Source: an uncultured virus (IMG/VR IMGVR_UViG_3300021960_000052)
Lineage: Duplodnaviria; Heunggongvirae; Uroviricota; Caudoviricetes
Length of the DNA stretch: 64,000 bases
Virus record (IMG/VR): IMGVR_UViG_3300021960_000052
Strand: one strand, 5' to 3'
Shown here in pieces: positions 3,927 through 58,623 of the stretch; the stretch's first letter is position 1; every line of letters begins with the position of its first letter. Under the pieces are notes generated by a model, which was not told the origin of the DNA, searched no databases, and was given only the letters and a program-made list of their open reading frames with translations. Position numbers and translations under genes: made by a program.

Positions 3927-3999
3927 GTTTTTTTGTCTCCATATATGGCTTTGTGAATGTATTTACACTCTTTTTCTTAATATTGGTGTTTTTTTAGGT

Positions 4000-4027
4000 A
4001 AAAAGGCGCCTTTTTGGAGCCTTTTTT
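4000..4027 (-). terminator. Putative intrinsic terminator, possibly bidirectional
   Basis: AAAAAAGGCTCC-AAAAA-GGCGCCTTTTT inverted repeat with one mismatch, just after the 72-aa ORF. Confidence 0.6.
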
Positions 4028-4036
4028 AAGAAATGC

Positions 4037-4255
4037 TTATAATTGAGGTGCTTCTGCTGGTGCTCCGTACTGCCTTTGCACACGTTTAGCTTTTATTGTT
4101 TGTTCGTAAGTTCTTACGTCATTCATGATACGTAACTTGTTTAACTGCTTGAGAGTTAGTTTAGTTTTACGTAAGTCACCAATACGAGCCTTACTTTGAT
4201 CTTCGTTTTCGTCTTGGTAACCTGGATTTTTGTTGTATAATTCGTTGAGTATCAT
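4037..4255 (-). CDS. Small basic head-module protein (gp68-like position)
   Basis: 72 aa with LRKTKLTLKQLNKLR; directly downstream of portal with its own TATAAATA. Confidence 0.7.
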   Translation of the reverse strand: MILNELYNKNPGYQDENEDQSKARIGDLRKTKLTLKQLNKLRIMNDVRTYEQTIKAKRVQRQYGAPAEAPQL

Positions 4256-4260
4256 AATAG

Positions 4261-4268
4261 TATTTATA
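4261..4268 (-). promoter_or_regulatory. T4-type late promoter TATAAATA
   Basis: Exact gp55 consensus overlapping the portal stop codon, 5 nt before the ATG at 4255. Confidence 0.8.
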
Positions 4269-8235: not shown

Positions 8236-9075
8236 ATGGCTGAAAATCAACAAAATCCGTTGAACAAATACTTTAGGCAACCAGCAATTTATGTTAAATT
8301 GCCTAGCAACGGAAAACATTATCCACCAGACAGTATACATATTCCAGCAAATGGAGAAATACCTATATACCCAATGACTGCAATGGATGAAATTATTACT
8401 AGGACCCCGGACGCACTGTTTAATGGGTCAGCAGTTGCACAGTTATTTCAAAGTTGTGTACCAAACATTAAAGATCCGTGGGTAATTCCACAAATTGATA
8501 TTGACATGTTGTTTACTGCAATACGTATTGCTAGTTACGGTCATGAAATGGAATTAGAATTTACTTGCCCACATTGTTTAGAAACTGATAATTTTGCTTT
8601 AGATCTTAGACAGGTAATTGACCAATATGGCATTCCAGACTTTGAACAAAATTTACAGGTTGGAGATTTAGAAATTTATTTTAGACCTCTTAACTATACA
8701 CAGATCAGTCAATCAGCACAGAAACAGTTTGAACAACAAAAACGTATTCAGTTAACATCGGCCGCTGAAAACGTCACTGATGATGACAAACTTAAAGCAA
8801 TGAGTGAAGCGTTAGCTGAAATTACCAAAATGACATTAGCAACAATGACTGAAAGTATTGCGGCTATTAAGTCAGATGGTCTTGTTATCGACAACCGAGA
8901 TCATATCAATGAGTTTATGAATAACATTGATAGAACGCTGTATGCAAGTATTAGAGATCATTTAACAGAAGTAAGATCTAAAGGGCAAATGAAACCTTTA
9001 ACTGTGTCCTGTAAAAAATGTAGTAAACCATTTGAACAACCATTTACTTTGGACTTATCAAATTTTTTCGTATGA
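8236..9075 (+). CDS. gp26: Baseplate hub assembly / tail-assembly chaperone protein (gp26-like)
   Basis: Motifs NPL..YFRQP.IY..LPS.G, PMTA.DE, D.D.L..AIRIASYG, two CxxC (CPHC, CKKC) and a C-terminal NFF. Confidence 0.8.
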   Translation: MAENQQNPLNKYFRQPAIYVKLPSNGKHYPPDSIHIPANGEIPIYPMTAMDEIITRTPDALFNGSAVAQLFQSCVPNIKDPWVIPQIDIDMLFTAIRIASYGHEMELEFTCPHCLETDNFALDLRQVIDQYGIPDFEQNLQVGDLEIYFRPLNYTQISQSAQKQFEQQKRIQLTSAAENVTDDDKLKAMSEALAEITKMTLATMTESIAAIKSDGLVIDNRDHINEFMNNIDRTLYASIRDHLTEVRSKGQMKPLTVSCKKCSKPFEQPFTLDLSNFFV

Positions 9076-9299: not shown

Positions 9300-9307
9300 C
9301 CAAAGAC

Positions 9308-9336
9308 TTGACATAAAAATCAAATTATGCTATATT
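9308..9336 (+). promoter_or_regulatory. Sigma70-type early promoter
   Basis: TTGACA (9308-9313), a 17-nt spacer ending in TGC (extended -10), then TATATT (9331-9336). Confidence 0.75.
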
Positions 9337-9380
9337 ACTATTAGGGCTGAAGTAATAACCCAATATAATTTAGACCGTAT

Positions 9381-9398
9381 ATATGCCAATTGGCATAT
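9381..9398. repeat. Perfect 18-bp palindrome ATATGCCAATTGGCATAT (candidate operator)
   Basis: Exact reverse-complement symmetry about 40 nt downstream of the sigma70 promoter. Confidence 0.6.
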
Positions 9399-9536
9399 TT
9401 TTAATAACTATGTAGATTATACGGAGTTAAGAGTCTAAATAAATTAATACTACGATAAAAAGTAGTATGTACCACAGCACTAACGTGGTAATCGATTAAG
9501 CAGTAATGCTTGATCTCTTTTTAGGAGGTAATACTT

Positions 9537-9829: not shown

Positions 9830-9847
9830 ATGGCTATAAATAATGCT

Positions 9848-10555
9848 ATGTTGGTTAGTCATACACACAAATTCATTTATCTCAAAACACGCAAAACAGC
9901 AGGTACATCTGTAGAAGCATACTTTGATCAATTTTGTTTACCGCCCAACGAACTGCACGGACAACATGATTTAGTTGGTAGACAAAGCAAATATGGTATA
10001 TGCAGTGGACGTAATAATCTGACACACATAGAACCTAACATAGACGCAGATGTTCAAGCGTACAGTGTTTACAATCATATGACAGCCGAAGAACTTAAAC
10101 AAGAATTAGGTAATGAGATTTGGTCCAGTTATTTTAAGTTTTGTGTAGTTAGAAATCCCTGGGACAGAGCTATATCAATGTTTTGGTTTAAAGATAGTTT
10201 ATTAAGATATAAATTAGAACAAAATCCAGATTTATCGTTTGATGAAATTATAAAACAGTTTGAATATTGGTCAGGAACAGTTCCTAACAAACGATGGGTA
10301 GAACCAGATTACAATATTTGGTCCATAGACGGTCAATGTATTGTTGATGATGTTGTTCGTTATGAAACTATCAATGAAGACTGTGCTAGACTAAGTTTAA
10401 AGTTTGGTAAAGAATTTACAGAATTGCCAAGATATAAAACTGAATCACGTAAACAGAAACATCCTTACCAAAGTTATTACACAAACCCAGAAGTGTTAGA
10501 AAAGTTAACAGAATTGTTTATGCCTTACAGTAAGCAATTTGTATATACTTTTTAA
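9848..10555 (+). CDS. Sulfotransferase family 2 (carbohydrate sulfotransferase-like)
   Basis: PAPS-binding motifs FIYLKTRKTAGTS and F.VVRNPWDRAIS. Start moved to ATG 9848 because TATAAATA (9835-9842) lies 5 nt upstream and the ORF-track start at 9830 abuts the terminator. Confidence 0.85.
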   Translation: MLVSHTHKFIYLKTRKTAGTSVEAYFDQFCLPPNELHGQHDLVGRQSKYGICSGRNNLTHIEPNIDADVQAYSVYNHMTAEELKQELGNEIWSSYFKFCVVRNPWDRAISMFWFKDSLLRYKLEQNPDLSFDEIIKQFEYWSGTVPNKRWVEPDYNIWSIDGQCIVDDVVRYETINEDCARLSLKFGKEFTELPRYKTESRKQKHPYQSYYTNPEVLEKLTELFMPYSKQFVYTF

Positions 10556-10961
10556 GATGTCTAAAGACATCTGTTTCATCGCTTACGCTCGAAACTTATT
10601 TCTTAATTAACTGCTTTCCGTATTATCCAGATATAAGTCATAATTCACCTATCCGCAGGCAAATTATGACAAACGCATTATCCGAGTACTGCGCCATACT
10701 AACTAACAGAGATTGTATTACTACACGGAGGCGGTTAGCCGGTACCCCCTACTCTTGATTCATCCAGCGGATACTTGTCAATCCCTAGTTAGCGAAATTA
10801 ACAAGCACGTGAGTTGCTTTTTCTCAGAGCTCACATCATTTAGTTTTTACACTTAATTTTGTTACGTGCCGTCCCGTGTGCAGTTTGATCTACACGTTCC
10901 TTGTAGTTAGTAAACTACAATCTCCTCATAGGACACGGAGAACACTCCGCATCAGTGGCTG
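10555..10961 (-). ncRNA. Candidate large structured non-coding RNA (~405 nt) immediately 3' of the GIY-YIG gene
   Basis: ORF-free and GC-richer than its flanks. Stems at 10936-10949, 10901-10920, 10809-10834, 10774-10805, 10727-10749, 10714-10725, 10637-10670, 10573-10595 and 10555-10572. G-U pairs and GUAA loops are valid only on the minus strand. Confidence 0.75.
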
Positions 10962-11402
10962 TTAGTTTAAATCTTCTTTTAGTATGCCCTTTACGGAGCC
11001 TATGCCTAGTCTTATATTGATTATGCCGTTATAGTTGTCATCACGGAGTAACACATGCTCTTTTATTTGATAGTAGCACTCCATGTAGTTTGTTATGCCT
11101 CTTGTTTTACATAAATGGATTATTTCGCGAGTGAATTTATCTTTGCCTAATTGTTCGATATCATGTTGAAGCCGATCACTAGATCCCCAGTAGGTCTTCC
11201 AGTCCGTTTCAACAGTTTCTCGTCTTTTGTTTTTCTTGCCTTTGAGTGGTGGGCGTTTCTTTACTGTCCAGAAAAATTTCCTTCCAATATAGTCGTGCCC
11301 ATTTATGGTATTAGTAATACGATAGATAAAGCCGTAATTATCACCAATATCTTTTGTATCAAAAACTTGGTCTTGATATAACCAAGGGTTTTCGTATGAC
11401 AA
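10962..11402 (-). CDS. Minimal GIY-YIG (Seg-like) endonuclease
   Basis: YGFIYRITN...DYIGRK, YWGSS, FTREI...C, E and YN motifs; TTG start; no obvious C-terminal NUMOD/HTH DNA-binding domain. Confidence 0.85.
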   Translation of the reverse strand: MSYENPWLYQDQVFDTKDIGDNYGFIYRITNTINGHDYIGRKFFWTVKKRPPLKGKKNKRRETVETDWKTYWGSSDRLQHDIEQLGKDKFTREIIHLCKTRGITNYMECYYQIKEHVLLRDDNYNGIINIRLGIGSVKGILKEDLN

Positions 11403-11420
11403 TGTAATGTTCCTTTCGTA

Positions 11421-12434
11421 TTACCATTCAGTTGCGTAGTCTAAATTGACTACTGACATATTACATTTAGTCTTACATTCCACCCAGGGGAAAATTTCAA
11501 ACCGTTCTTCCCAGAATTTATCTTCAAGAACCTCTGTCAACGCCCGTTTATTAAGGTCAAAACTATTACTCAGTTCAGACCATTCATTATTATGATTGTA
11601 CCTATTTGCTACCCAACAACAAGGAAGTAAACGACCTTGACTGTTTAGGAACAAGCCTTTATTGCCAATACTACATAAAGGTTTGATGTCTCCATAGGTT
11701 TTAGATTTTTCGTATAATTCAACGTTGGTTTTGTAACCTACTGTGCTAGGCTGTCTGCCTGATAGGTTAAGGACTTCACGTGTAAATCTATACTTATCGC
11801 TGATATTAGGAGTACTAGGTTGTAGTGGATCGTTTTTAGGGTATATAGGATATACCTGATTAAATTTTGTACTACGAGTTATTTGAAATTCATCAAACCC
11901 TAGGTGCTCAGCCTGTGCTTTCATAGTATCTAGGTGTTCTTCGTTAAATTTAAACACTATACAATCCCAAGTCATGTATACATCGCTAACCTGTCTAAGT
12001 GTTTGTACACCTAATATAATACTGTCCCAATTAGAGTTTACTCTATACTGTTCGTTACTTGCTTGGTCCCAGCCATCTAAACTAAAGTGTATGTGATCAT
12101 TTTCATCTAATACACTACCAAGTTGAAGCCACCAGTCTGCTTTTTTGTAACTACCGTTAGTAACAATAACAAACTTAACTGGTTTAATTGATTTAAAATA
12201 TTCAATAACATCAACAAGATCGTGTGCATATATAGGATCTCCGTCATCACCACAGAATGTAATCTTTTCTACATTGTCACGTATAAAGTCAGGAGTAAAA
12301 TTCTTTTTGAAAAAGTCAAGTCTAAGCTCAGTATTAACTAATGTTTCTGGAACTTCTTCTCTAGCACACCTAGGACACTTTAGTGTACATTTACTAGATA
12401 TTTCTATATGCCAATGCCAGGTTGCTAGTTTCAT
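11421..12434 (-). CDS. Radical SAM protein with C-terminal twitch/SPASM-like Cys cluster
   Basis: CTLKCPRC (CxxxCxxC), TFCGDDGDP, TNGS, FSLDG; C-terminal PLC...PCCW...CKTKC. Confidence 0.9.
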   Translation of the reverse strand: MKLATWHWHIEISSKCTLKCPRCAREEVPETLVNTELRLDFFKKNFTPDFIRDNVEKITFCGDDGDPIYAHDLVDVIEYFKSIKPVKFVIVTNGSYKKADWWLQLGSVLDENDHIHFSLDGWDQASNEQYRVNSNWDSIILGVQTLRQVSDVYMTWDCIVFKFNEEHLDTMKAQAEHLGFDEFQITRSTKFNQVYPIYPKNDPLQPSTPNISDKYRFTREVLNLSGRQPSTVGYKTNVELYEKSKTYGDIKPLCSIGNKGLFLNSQGRLLPCCWVANRYNHNNEWSELSNSFDLNKRALTEVLEDKFWEERFEIFPWVECKTKCNMSVVNLDYATEW

Positions 12435-13303
12435 TTAAATTCAACCTCGTGTTGCCATTGTCCTGTAAAACTAGTAACTTCTTCAACAGATCTACAAGTT
12501 GTATAACACATATCGTTGGGTTGGTCAGTTTTCCAAGATTGTTTAATAGTTTCAAATTGATCAATAGAATTATCTGTAATACCCAAATAACAACAAGGAT
12601 ATATAACACCTTCTGCTGACATGTATCTACTTTGTTCGTTTAGTGCTTGACAGGAAATATTACCAAACCTTACTGTTGGATTTTTCCAACCTTTTGGTGG
12701 ATTTAAAAACTTAACAGGATTAATTTCATGGCGTCTAGTAATTTTAGCTCTAAACCATTTAAATCCTAAATCACGTGCTAGTTGTTCACACGCATTAACT
12801 TGATGTTCGTTGTGTTCAAACACTAACATATCCCAATGAGCTCGACCTCCAGCTTTGATAAATGTCTGAGCATTTTCAATAACTTTATTCCAATTTACAT
12901 TTATCCTATAGATATGGTTAGTGTCCTCTAGTCCATCAATACTGAACACGCTGTAATCTTTTTCAGTATTTAATATGATACCTAATTCATGCCACCAATC
13001 CTGATCACGCAGTCCGCCGTTAGAATTCATTCCTAAACTAATACCTGGATTAACTGTTCTAAAGTAACGATAAATGTCTAATGTGTGTTTGCCAGCGGCT
13101 GGATCACCATAATCGCCACACATAAACATTTTGTCTAAGTTACTGATAATGTCATCACCTAACTGTTTACGTATTTGCTCTATAGTTAAATGATGTAGAT
13201 TTTTTTTATCAAACGATGTATCTGTTTCTCTAGAACATTGTGGACAAGCCGCATTACACGCATCTGTGGGTTCTAGGTGTAATATTTTAAACGGAGTCAA
13301 CAT
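12431..13303 (-). CDS. Radical SAM protein (paralog of the neighbouring gene)
   Basis: CNAACPQC, MCGDYGDP, SNGG, FSIDG, YPCCY. ATG 13303 is the likely start; the ORF track extends to 13327. Confidence 0.9.
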   Translation of the reverse strand: MLTPFKILHLEPTDACNAACPQCSRETDTSFDKKNLHHLTIEQIRKQLGDDIISNLDKMFMCGDYGDPAAGKHTLDIYRYFRTVNPGISLGMNSNGGLRDQDWWHELGIILNTEKDYSVFSIDGLEDTNHIYRINVNWNKVIENAQTFIKAGGRAHWDMLVFEHNEHQVNACEQLARDLGFKWFRAKITRRHEINPVKFLNPPKGWKNPTVRFGNISCQALNEQSRYMSAEGVIYPCCYLGITDNSIDQFETIKQSWKTDQPNDMCYTTCRSVEEVTSFTGQWQHEVEFK

Positions 13304-15056
13304 CTGTGCCATATGTAGTAAAGCCATTTTCTTTTGTAACTGTCATAATATTGTTAACTCGTCCTGACAGTTCGTCTTTGTGCGATACTAACCAAATACT
13401 CTTGTTTTGTTCACGTGACATCTTTTTAAGTATTGCAAGGGCACTTTCTACACCACTAGCATCCATACCTGAATCAATAAGTTCGTCAATGAATAACAAG
13501 TTAATAGGGTCGTAGAGGCTTTCATAGACATCTCTGAAACTCCATGACAGTGAAAGTATCAGTCTATTACGTTCACCTCTACTTAAATTGTCAAAATCTA
13601 ACTCACGGCCAAGCTCTGTAATTTCCACTGACAGATCGTTTAGGAAGGTAACTGTGTGTGGCAGTCCGATTCTGTCAAGGTAATAACTTAGCCGTGCGTT
13701 TAGATAACTGAGATTTTGATCAATTATTCGTTTTCTAATAAAGGAGTCTTTATTAGTTAATAGTTTTTGTAAAAATTCTTGATGTTCTCTTAGTTTAACT
13801 AGAACATTAATTTCATTATAGTCTGGGTCTTGTGTTGAACTTTCTTCCATTTCTTGTATTTGCTCAACATAAGGATCTTCTTCTTGTTCTTTTGATGTTA
13901 ATTGTGCTTTTAGTGTAGTAATTGAATTTTTATGTTCAAAAGCATCTGACTCGTTAGCATAAAAAACTTCAGGAGCAAAGCCTACGTCACCAAGCTCTGT
14001 TAATGCGTCTGTGAGTTGCTGTAAGGTCGCTGTGTGCGTGTTTACATCTTCCTGCACCCTGACTAGCGTGGCTTGTTTTTCTTCTAGCTGTGCTTCGTGT
14101 TTGTCGTCGTGTATTTCTTGTCCACAACTATGACATTTATGTTCTTTTAGTAACTTGATGTCTTGTTCTAATTTAACTATGTTGCCTTGTTCACGCTTAA
14201 GATCACGCTCTGTTCTCGTAATAGCATCAGTGATGTCATCATGATCTTTTTTGTTTTGTTTAAATTTGGTTAATTCTTTATGACTTGCTAGTTCTTGATC
14301 AATATCAATCTTTTCTAATTTTTCAATGGCCGCATTTAAACTATCTATGTCTTCTTGTTTTTTGTTAGCCCATAGAGTCTGTCTACGCTTCATTGACTCT
14401 ACTTGTTCTTTCATTTTTTCATTAGCATCTTTAAGAGCTTCAATTCTTATTTCTTCTTCTTTAATCCTATCTCTGGTTTCTTTTAACCGTTCTTTAAGAT
14501 TGTTTGCTTTTTCTGAAAGTAAGGTAATACCTAATAACTGTTCAATAATGTCTTTTTGATCGTTTGCTCTTAGATTAAGGAATGGTTCTGTGTAAGTGTT
14601 TAATGCTACTAAATGCTTGAACATCTCATGACTCATGCCCAGCATTGATTCAATAGCTTTTTGTGTTTCTCTACTATCGCCTTGTGCCATGTCTGTGATT
14701 TCTTGTTCTTCATCACCTACATAAAAACGCATAACATTTTTCTTACGCCCACGCTCTATTTTATATGTTTGTCCATTGTGTTCAAAGTCAAGACTAACTA
14801 ACATGCCCTTTGCGTTAGTTTTGTTGATTAAGTTATCACGTTTAATGTTAGTTAATGCTTGACCAAATAAAGCATAAGAAAGGGCATTGATGATAGTGGT
14901 CTTACCGGTACCATTCCTAGCGCCACTATCATCGCCTCCAAGGTCAATGTTAACACCAAGAACCAGTGTTAAGTCTCTGCGATCAAAGTTAACTGCTTGT
15001 GTGGCATTACCCACACTCATAAAGTTTTTAACTGTTAGATTTTTTAGTTTGAACAT
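13287..15056 (-). CDS. gp46: Recombination endonuclease ATPase subunit (gp46, SbcC/Rad50-like)
   Basis: Walker A GARNGTGKT, coiled coil with CHSC zinc hook, signature LSRGE, Walker B LFIDE, and SHK. Confidence 0.95.
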   Translation of the reverse strand: MFKLKNLTVKNFMSVGNATQAVNFDRRDLTLVLGVNIDLGGDDSGARNGTGKTTIINALSYALFGQALTNIKRDNLINKTNAKGMLVSLDFEHNGQTYKIERGRKKNVMRFYVGDEEQEITDMAQGDSRETQKAIESMLGMSHEMFKHLVALNTYTEPFLNLRANDQKDIIEQLLGITLLSEKANNLKERLKETRDRIKEEEIRIEALKDANEKMKEQVESMKRRQTLWANKKQEDIDSLNAAIEKLEKIDIDQELASHKELTKFKQNKKDHDDITDAITRTERDLKREQGNIVKLEQDIKLLKEHKCHSCGQEIHDDKHEAQLEEKQATLVRVQEDVNTHTATLQQLTDALTELGDVGFAPEVFYANESDAFEHKNSITTLKAQLTSKEQEEDPYVEQIQEMEESSTQDPDYNEINVLVKLREHQEFLQKLLTNKDSFIRKRIIDQNLSYLNARLSYYLDRIGLPHTVTFLNDLSVEITELGRELDFDNLSRGERNRLILSLSWSFRDVYESLYDPINLLFIDELIDSGMDASGVESALAILKKMSREQNKSIWLVSHKDELSGRVNNIMTVTKENGFTTYGTDVDSV

Positions 15057-58359: not shown

Positions 58360-58447
58360 AAATTTAATAAACAAAATTAAATTAGAAATACGTTATCGTA
58401 AAAAACTAAAAGAACTAAGGAAGAAGGACCCTTTTATATACAAATGA
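58346..58447 (+). CDS. 33-aa basic peptide MKWIKNLINKIKLEIRYRKKLKELRKKDPFIYK (absent from the ORF track)
   Basis: GAGG upstream; overlaps the previous stop and is ATGA-coupled to the next ORF, filling the gap exactly. Confidence 0.7.
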   Translation: MKWIKNLINKIKLEIRYRKKLKELRKKDPFIYK

Positions 58448-58623
58448 GCGAAATAGAATCACCTTGTATTGGAGTGTGTAGTCAAAATCCACAGACAGGA
58501 CAATGTCATGGATGTTGCCGTACGCCTGAAGAAATTGAAAAATGGTGGGATTACACAGACACAGAAAAATTAGCATTACTTGAAGACTTAGAAAAGAGAC
58601 AGAATGACCTATTTGGGGATTAG
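58444..58623 (+). CDS. DUF1289 / YdhL-like small predicted Fe-S protein, 59 aa (absent from the ORF track)
   Basis: Translated by hand: MSEIESPCIGVCSQNPQTGQCHGCCRTPEEIEKWWDY..., matching the SPC.GVC...C.GC.RT..EI..W family signature. Confidence 0.85.
   Translation: MSEIESPCIGVCSQNPQTGQCHGCCRTPEEIEKWWDYTDTEKLALLEDLEKRQNDLFGD

Follow-up and report, generated by a model that had tools for sequence, protein, structure and literature searches.

A 64,000-nucleotide (nt) piece of DNA from an uncultured virus of the Caudoviricetes (IMG/VR record IMGVR_UViG_3300021960_000052; the whole piece is referred to here as the window) specifies a large, pseudoknotted RNA that is a previously undescribed structured RNA family. 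Its gene lies at 10555–10961 on the minus strand, as do all parts of the RNA described below (RNA 1–407, position p of the RNA being window position 10962−p). Hundreds of giant T4-like phages, of an uncultured lineage sampled from marine, estuarine and salt-marsh sites, have conserved it. The interpretation favored, to which a probability of roughly 60% is attached, is that this is an autonomous, new, trans-acting structured RNA at the end of a recombination-gene transcript, and that the homing-type nuclease genes beside it are exchangeable neighbours. Large RNAs with many helices, pseudoknots and invariant junctions are rare, and those that are understood are usually ribozymes, ribonucleoprotein cores or self-assembling particles. 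A preliminary description, made from the window sequence, had proposed a candidate new system of a GIY-YIG nuclease and a non-coding RNA (ncRNA); the new structured RNA has stood up to analysis and the GIY-YIG partnership has not.

The gap that holds the RNA, minus-strand 10556–10961, is at 406 nt the longest stretch of the window devoid of an open reading frame (ORF) of at least 60 amino acids (aa) on either strand, the runner-up at that cut-off being 244 nt. It begins one base past the TAA stop (10962–10964) of the 146-aa GIY-YIG ORF (10962–11402, minus strand), both points being as first described, and its far side is the stop of a convergent gene (9830–10555, plus strand). For the minus strand of the gap the folding energy is −121.8 kcal/mol, and 100 dinucleotide shuffles give −98.4 ± 5.0 (z score −4.69, 0/100 as good), an outcome that favors the early suggestion of a highly structured RNA; for the plus strand the z score is −2.73. 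There is no conserved ORF in the RNA, the commonest being common to 10 of 98 sequences, and insertions and deletions in the family are not multiples of three.

A first model, from RNAalifold on the window and 40 unique close relatives (truncated copies and exact duplicates were dropped), had 68 pairs, 43 of them with compensatory changes among these 41 sequences. Refinement by mutual information over 98 sequences, and with a core alignment (A2) of 96 sequences from which L096 and L161 were excluded for their long inserts, led to the final model of 19 helices and 104 pairs, with two pseudoknots and several invariant purine-rich junctions. Across the family the length of the RNA is about 350–405 nt. 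For the whole structure in the 41 sequences, 92.3% of cells are paired versus 80.9 ± 0.3% in shuffled alignments, 63 of the 104 pairs are changed on both sides versus 42.1 ± 2.8, and the covariation score is 0.364 versus 0.163, with 0/500 shuffles as good in each case; sliding the partners gives scores of 0.047–0.103. The core, assessed with A2, has 84.7% of cells paired versus 70.2% and a score of 0.394 versus 0.153 (again 0/500 as good for both), partners slid giving 0.07–0.10, and both sides are changed in 38 of its 45 pairs. Some G-U pairs are invariant or nearly so, for example in 92/92, 86/92 and 83/92 distinct rows of the core alignment, and they are possible on the minus strand only, so that the minus strand is the folded strand. 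These pairs and the covariation uphold the original view that selection acts on minus-strand RNA rather than on DNA cruciforms.

The nine helices first drawn by hand are all present in the consensus structure, each with at least two compensated pairs in relatives. Two of them, P2 (10949–10936) and P4 (10920–10901), belong to the 5′ domain of helices P1–P5 (RNA 3–94; 10868–10959), where 18 of 24 pairs are changed on both sides. This domain is the part that differs most between subfamilies, and distant members build it differently. The central core (RNA 109–263; 10699–10853) comprises Ha, Hb, Hc, He, Hf, Hg and both pseudoknots, is supported by covariation and carries the invariant sequence blocks of the RNA; a covariance model of 172 positions, R1, gives the window 160.9 bits. 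Four of the hand-drawn helices are here, Hb (10834–10809), Hc (10805–10774), Hf (10749–10727) and Hg (10725–10714). The remaining three, all in the 3′ part, are the long conserved hairpin Hj (RNA 292–325; 10637–10670; helix 16, 93.5% paired), which is among the top mutual-information pairs of the alignment, and Hk (10595–10573) and Hl (10572–10555). Hk and Hl (helices 17–19, spanning 10555–10595) have 8 of 14 pairs changed on both sides and are kept in distant members, and Hl meets the stop of the convergent gene. Of two loops proposed as GNRA tetraloops, that of Hk is G-N-N-A throughout the relatives and that of Hg, GUAA in the window, is not conserved as GNRA.

The fold had been called pseudoknotted before any particular pseudoknot was named, and two are now found, both supported by covariation. 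In PK1 the loop of hairpin Hc (RNA 170–176; 10786–10792) joins a strand 80 nt downstream (RNA 257–263; 10699–10705); all seven pairs are changed on both sides in A2, and at least 10 different loop words occur, each matched by its complement in the partner strand. In PK2 a short strand (RNA 195–198; 10764–10767) and the loop of 4 nt in hairpin Hf (RNA 224–227; 10735–10738) show covariation, both sides being changed in three of the four pairs. That loop had previously been taken as the end of an inner CGG-CUAA-CCG hairpin, a stem which never varies in the alignment and finds no support there, and its partner is the upstream strand.

The strongest signal other than Watson–Crick pairing comes from two heptamers on either side of hairpin Hj. 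In the window, copy 2 (RNA 279–285; 10677–10683) and copy 3 (RNA 334–340; 10622–10628) both read GGATAAT, with ACUC preceding the former and AUCU the latter. The copies are identical in 96 of 98 unique sequences, despite the occurrence of 14 different words, rare ones included, and in 68 of 73 metagenome loci, the remaining five having a one-letter difference. Three position pairs between them rank 3rd, 5th and 6th of all column pairs, with a Watson–Crick fraction of 0 for each, and close relatives change both heptamers together (e.g. L022 versus L023). Single-mismatch intermediates are at about 2–7%, and the selection for sameness suggests that the sites interact, or that both serve one co-evolving partner. 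No consistent complement of the heptamer was found inside the RNA and none within 2.5 kb; in the window the word and its complement occur 5 and 6 times versus 7.5 and 6.2 expected, which is no enrichment, and a third similar word upstream (copy 1) shows no co-variation. The AUCU in front of copy 3 could pair with letters 1–4 of copy 2, and in rare variants where this helix is broken the heptamers are still identical. The distance between copies is 50–64 nt (mode 55), and fixed DNA phasing of the repeats was rejected. Identity of a drifting word, with at least 14 forms, is a type of covariation that standard base-pair methods overlook, and an explanation of the pair could reveal a new mode of partner recognition by RNAs.

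Read as triplets, the heptamers are mostly a sense codon and then UAA or UGA. The translational bypass cassette of T4 gene 60 adjoins the mobA endonuclease gene, and within its one continuous ORF the take-off and landing codons match. Features here that bring it to mind are a roughly 50-nt hairpin between matched short words, the homing-type nuclease gene alongside, and a stop-like triplet that follows the first word in most sequences. However, there is no spanning ORF here, the identity extends over 7 nt rather than a codon, and the stop-like triplet is found with both copies. A type III toxin–antitoxin RNA of the ToxI kind, for which a tandem array of identical repeats and then a ToxN-type endoribonuclease gene would be expected, was also considered and rejected: there are only two short identical words, around one hairpin, and the next gene is the convergent sulfotransferase-like one.

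The breadth of the family was established by two routes. A protein-anchored scan of IMG/VR gave 189 GIY-YIG relatives, from which 80 loci were kept; the gap sequence matched 72 of these by blastn, and the eight misses have just 0–322 nt past the gene. Conservation and covariation downstream of homologous GIY-YIG genes, which had been anticipated, are thereby found (72/80 loci matched, 43/68 pairs compensated). A scan of IMG/VR with a conserved 29-mer pattern gave at least 120 matches, of which 80 further loci were taken; all 80 carry the RNA, and many are far more diverged, at about 50–57% identity to the window RNA. A profile finds the RNA in 153 of the 160 IMG/VR loci, yielding 98 unique full-length sequences. 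The RNA is abundant in environmental data, as the same 29-mer also gave at least 120 matches in metagenome contigs, with the RNA in 80 of 80 loci examined, though the two sets overlap (L145 and L229 are one contig) and are not independent. It occupies one fixed genomic position in about 230 loci, and R1 finds one copy in each of five large records (189–329 kb; one complete, with terminal repeats). As to the phages concerned, the gp46-like protein encoded at the locus is closest, at 50% identity, to those of PA5oct-type Pseudomonas jumbo phages, which on this protein are the nearest relatives in culture. DNA sequencing runs with the stretch are from estuary, marine or seawater samples, and RNA runs with parts of it are from estuary, marine, salt marsh or marsh.

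The preliminary description did not recognise a named family, and the searches agree. Rfam 15 (4227 models) gives no match at gathering score over the whole window. At E ≤ 10 the region 10300–11600 has three noise matches of 14–19 bits versus thresholds of 43–60, and at E ≤ 1 six diverse relatives of the RNA have none. ARAGORN finds neither a transfer RNA (tRNA) nor a transfer-messenger RNA in the window. Three family versions of the RNA gave no blastn match in 50,697 GenBank phage records, and a degenerate 29-mer taken from the block of highest conservation had no match in 185,579 bacterial and archaeal genomes (one per species), though as an exact pattern it may let distant relatives escape. 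No paper describing the RNA was found in a literature search. In the supplementary files of a survey of 10,006 candidate viral RNAs (PMC10690425), four 14-mers are absent from files 3, 5 and 6 and two from file 4, though the alignments of that survey may still hold the motif. A likeness of two conserved blocks to conserved regions of RNase P found no support, there being no Rfam RNase P match and one of the blocks pairing as PK2.

A homologue of the RNA in PA5oct itself was also sought and rejected: nhmmer gives E > 1, and the R1 match of 17.8 bits (E 0.18) is on a terminator-like hairpin elsewhere. PA5oct (L203) has a 1.5-kb stretch, 75,666–77,180, with only four annotated ORFs of 117–153 nt, situated between a RusA-like/PDDEXK gene and the gene preceding the baseplate hub, which is the relative position of the RNA. 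One hairpin loop in it resembles the Hb loop, and homology is unsupported by the profile and the covariance model. The four ncRNAs listed for PA5oct (PMC7318152) sit at other coordinates than this sparse stretch. In Melnitz there is a GIY-YIG homologue in a different context, and the RNA was not found there with nhmmer or R1.

Which gene precedes the RNA was tallied for the 141 IMG/VR loci with enough upstream DNA and for 71 informative metagenome loci. A GIY-YIG-family ORF is directly upstream in 116/141 and 48/71, respectively, and a PDDEXK_15 gene (168–173 aa, PF24608) in 11/141 and 13/71. In 13/141 some other inserted gene is directly upstream, with the GIY-YIG gene beyond it in at least 11, and in 8/71 metagenome loci the GIY-YIG gene is likewise at least 800 nt off; the genes inserted between nuclease and RNA take up 0.8–1.2 kb. 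A MazG-like gene in a different context is upstream in one IMG/VR locus (L087) and two metagenome loci, and in this L087/L258/L281 lineage no nuclease was found near the RNA (within 2.5 kb for L087). Three of the five large records have SegE_GIY-YIG without PDDEXK_15, and two have PDDEXK_15 without SegE_GIY-YIG. Whichever gene precedes, the conserved start of the RNA is within a few tens of nt of the upstream stop.

At least four changes of the PDDEXK label are required on a tree built from the RNA core, and well-supported branches force at least three of these. Sister RNAs (support of 99 in the Shimodaira–Hasegawa-like approximate likelihood ratio test, SH-aLRT) are found in L093, with a GIY-YIG gene and an inserted gene, and L143, with PDDEXK; nucleotide homology between these two loci starts at the 5′ edge of the RNA and extends 2.4 kb downstream, with none upstream. 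The small GIY-YIG gene is the commonest neighbour of the RNA and no obligate partner of it. The best reading is that its 5′ edge has time and again been a site of arrival or exchange for homing-type nuclease genes, whether PDDEXK_15 or SegE-type GIY-YIG (NUMOD3 present or absent). The occurrence of near-identical RNAs next to different nucleases, the inserted genes and the lineage in which no nuclease was found nearby are difficult to square with the dedicated GIY-YIG–RNA particle first suggested. Nor did a variable guide-like segment, also part of that suggestion, emerge: the hypervariable segment of the RNA is an A/U-rich linker alone, which is internal, and its deletion in the window RNA and several relatives argues that it is no guide.

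The protein itself looks like a Seg-type homing nuclease whose DNA-binding half has been lost and whose gene has been retained. The match to PF19835 (SegE_GIY-YIG) spans residues 7–123 of its 146 aa (E 1.6e-37), which places the catalytic domain in the SegE type. There is no second Pfam domain and no C-terminal DNA-binding module (NUMOD3, zinc finger or helix-turn-helix), so that its description as a catalytic domain only has held. By sequence no solved relative was found. The AlphaFold2 (AF2) model has a mean predicted local distance difference test (pLDDT) score of 79.5, with only one of five models confident, and that model is closest to the catalytic domain of I-TevI (probability 0.99, template-modelling (TM) score 0.62–0.64, though E is just 0.06). 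The median ratio of non-synonymous to synonymous substitution rates (dN/dS) is 0.096 (24 sequences; 88 of 276 pairs with 0.05 < dS < 2), from which it follows that the gene is not decaying. The sporadic presence and decay expected of Seg-type genes are not what is seen: a GIY-YIG gene is at the site in most loci, under purifying selection. A basic insert had been thought a feature for RNA binding, but at the same site in L158 a 355-aa SegE+NUMOD3 enzyme shares it (41% identity over 112 aa), which makes it a trait of the SegE-type domain family. One phage, that of the 329-kb complete record (G004) behind L161, is unusually rich in Seg-type nuclease genes, with seven SegE_GIY-YIG profile matches against at most one in each of the remaining four large records.

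How the preferred trans-acting RNA might be made and used can be put as follows. A hypervariable island between the gp46-like gene and a convergent baseplate-hub gene would have the RNA gene as its fixed distal border, and the RNA would be produced as the 3′-terminal part of an early or middle transcript through that island. Once folded it may persist in trans as a ribonucleoprotein scaffold, or as a ribozyme-like or decoy RNA, and the hairpin with its twin identical heptamers would present a single co-evolving partner with two equivalent sites. The slot next to the RNA would be taken repeatedly by nuclease genes of two unrelated folds.

Six metatranscriptomic runs hold parts of the stretch, and the four examined (X15, X16, X17 and X19) consist of assembled contigs. 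Those of X16 that are 100% identical to the window fall on the RNA core alone (10649–10810 and 10781–10858), a weak hint of a stable transcript, and in X17 contigs of relatives cover the RNA core and the GIY-YIG gene. There is no contig cover over 10200–10556, nor over the GIY-YIG ORF in X16, which in contigs is not evidence of absence.

Several observations count against an autonomous RNA. Of the 141 IMG/VR loci, 127 have a small nuclease gene as the immediate upstream neighbour and at least 11 more have one farther upstream, an association that is far from random and could reflect a functional link; both nuclease types, moreover, are without a DNA-binding domain in most loci. A contig of 1,481 nt from a relative in X19 spans the GIY-YIG gene, the RNA and beyond, no sigma-70-like promoter was found upstream on the RNA strand, and the RNA may be merely the 3′ end of the nuclease messenger RNA (mRNA). 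The contigs from metatranscriptomes may include DNA, and ends, strand and level are not readable from them. Within the fold, helix 15, which joins the two heptamer regions, has no compensatory change, and one of the five covariation measures, that of further pair types, equals shuffles (128 versus 126.8; 211/500 as good). That the RNA has a function is deduced from its complexity alone.

Among the alternatives, a cis-acting 3′ end element is unlikely, though the least unlikely of them. The RNA would then be a structured 3′ untranslated region (UTR) closing the early or middle operon at a convergent junction, and it would keep 3′ exonucleases off the mRNA and prevent read-through antisense to the baseplate genes. 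Consistent with this, the RNA always ends a run of same-strand genes and faces convergent ones, its terminal hairpin Hl meets the stop of the convergent gene, Hj is terminator-like in the window, and no promoter of its own was found. However, termination or protection requires no 19 helices, two co-varying pseudoknots and invariant junctions, and the L087 lineage has same-strand ORFs after the RNA. The terminator-like flag of Hj, moreover, is confined to the window: at least five T in the 8 nt past the hairpin are present in just 4 of 98 relatives, which speaks against Hj as a conserved terminator.

A modular ribonucleoprotein, in which the RNA is the scaffold or specificity subunit shared by either minimal nuclease and the twin heptamers serve as a duplicated guide or seed, is doubtful. 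It would account for a domain-only nuclease gene lying directly upstream in the 127 IMG/VR loci and in 61/71 metagenome loci, for the mutual exclusion of GIY-YIG and PDDEXK_15 in the five large records, for the purifying selection on the GIY-YIG gene, and for heptamers that vary freely yet remain identical, as if both read one partner. It sits badly with unrelated nuclease folds beside near-identical RNAs, with the genes of 0.8–1.2 kb that separate nuclease from RNA in 13 loci, and with the L087/L258/L281 lineage, in which no nuclease was found nearby. The complement of the heptamer was not found in the RNA or within 2.5 kb and is not enriched in the window, 7 nt are insufficient to specify a site, and the basic insert, a family trait, is present in a classic full-length Seg enzyme too. 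In a bolder and still less likely form, a modular RNA-dependent nuclease would have the RNA as its constant subunit, with interchangeable GIY-YIG or PD-(D/E)XK enzymes docking on the pseudoknotted scaffold and the heptamers reading a short target word twice or holding two copies of one partner. If true, DNA or RNA would be cut by an RNA-specified system with no relation to CRISPR or OMEGA, which might serve phage competition or anti-defence.

A DNA-level element, the direct repeats and cruciform acting as a replication origin, as iterons or as a recombination site, is very improbable. There is an inverted repeat between two identical direct repeats, and some lineages have 10-nt-periodic TTAGGCAC-like repeats at the 5′ edge. 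Strand-exchange reactions need identical short core words, as in the overlap regions of tyrosine recombinases, and the identity of the heptamers resembles that of such words. However, strand-specific G-U pairs, some of them invariant, and the covariation of the pseudoknots are possible only in a single strand with a given polarity, the repeats lie at varying distances (50–64 bp), and inverted binding arms beside the heptamers were not seen in the alignment. Least credible of all is a mobile RNA element, be it a homing endonuclease and its degenerate group I intron, or an omega-type RNA in a unit resembling IS200/605: GIY-YIG and PD-(D/E)XK are both folds of intron endonucleases, the model is nearest I-TevI, and the RNA has pseudoknots and the size of an intron core, but Rfam gives no intron, HEARO or other match, the flanking ORFs are intact and convergent, which means that no host gene is split, and position is fixed in about 230 loci with no TnpB or IscB found.

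The trans-acting RNA preferred here can also be set beside known systems. GOLLD and ROOL are described as larger than the present RNA, and tRNA genes are their usual neighbourhood. The likeness to them (PMC12286853) is that of a large, multi-helix, pseudoknotted, phage-carried RNA found by covariation and with a function that is not known; unlike them, the RNA described here matches no Rfam model, has no tRNA gene in its window by ARAGORN, belongs to giant T4-like aquatic phages and has an identity-coupled heptamer pair. In IscB/HEARO and TnpB–omega-RNA systems, too, a compact nuclease gene is beside a structured RNA of a few hundred nt. Membership of the former was rejected: there is no HEARO match and no RuvC-type protein, the gene after the RNA is convergent, and the neighbours are SegE_GIY-YIG, PDDEXK_15, radical S-adenosylmethionine (SAM) and sulfotransferase genes. 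As for the latter, there is no TnpB and there are no transposon ends, the syntenic position is fixed and the variable linker is internal. No variable guide adjoins the scaffold, and it makes no difference to the RNA which nuclease gene comes before it. A group I intron with a GIY-YIG enzyme of the I-TevI type offers the nearest nuclease fold and an RNA of comparable size and complexity; here, unlike there, no intron model matches, no gene is interrupted and the ORF is upstream of the RNA rather than inside it. Genes upstream have stops of their own and differ from locus to locus, and the downstream gene is convergent.

Another comparison is T4 SegB, a GIY-YIG homing endonuclease within a tRNA gene cluster, which is reported to drive preferential inheritance of the tRNA genes (PMC2330249) and to amplify tRNA loci as anti-defence loci (PMC13096335). 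Nuclease genes are reported to mark boundaries of genetic exchange between phage genomes (PMC10448857). Adjacency of RNA and nuclease in the window matches both: a Seg-type GIY-YIG gene is directly beside a conserved structured-RNA gene, and a nuclease gene is exactly at the break in homology between related genomes. Unlike SegB, the window enzyme is without its DNA-binding half and is under purifying selection, and the RNA is not a tRNA; unlike the exchange-boundary nucleases, it is the RNA gene that sets the boundary, and two unrelated nuclease folds alternate. Why homing-type nuclease genes adjoin structured-RNA genes is a question for which the locus provides a clean natural experiment, and an RNA limited to an uncultured group of giant phages, with no curated family, is a concrete new target for work on structure and function.

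The order of genes around the RNA is constant: the gp46-like gene, variable genes, the small nuclease gene, the RNA, and convergent genes up to the baseplate hub. The upstream anchor, a gp46-like SbcC/Rad50 recombination nuclease subunit (13287–15056, minus strand; phrog_77, E 3e-99), and the downstream anchor, the convergent baseplate-hub gene (8236–9075, plus strand; phrog_150, E 2.5e-20), are each present in most loci. Between the gp46-like gene and the nuclease the window has an island of two radical-SAM genes (11421–13327, minus strand), assigned by Pfam PF04055. The match for 12431–13327 has E 3.9e-09 and 37.3 bits, and that for 11421–12434, with E 3.4e-06 and 27.8 bits, is under the 29.5-bit cut-off. 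These genes are kept in some loci and absent from others.

The island is hypervariable in its cargo, with 0–2 radical-SAM genes across loci L001–L162; other loci have unannotated ORFs of 260–390 aa that have no Pfam match (clusters c8, c16, c17 and c20), and L161 has a second GIY-YIG+NUMOD3 gene there. The sulfotransferase-like convergent gene identified by profile searches (9830–10555, plus strand), whose stop Hl meets, is at 81–100% identity in L001 and L002 and at 30–43% in eight others, and most loci are without it, so the downstream side of the RNA accepts cargo too. At and for about 100 nt before the 5′ edge of the RNA, L087, L096, L132, L156 and L158 have 2–8 tandem TTAGGCAC-like words with a period of about 10 nt, and the close family has one related word, AGCCAC, at that border; throughout the window such words are not enriched (15 versus 17.2 expected). 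Further stretches of the window devoid of sizeable ORFs are 58360–58603, 9300–9536 and 3927–4263 (244, 237 and 337 nt, the ORF cut-off mattering for such lengths). Within the initial 40 nt of the GIY-YIG ORF, just past the end of the upstream radical-SAM gene, there is a terminator-like hairpin followed by TTTTT at 11366–11386 on the minus strand.

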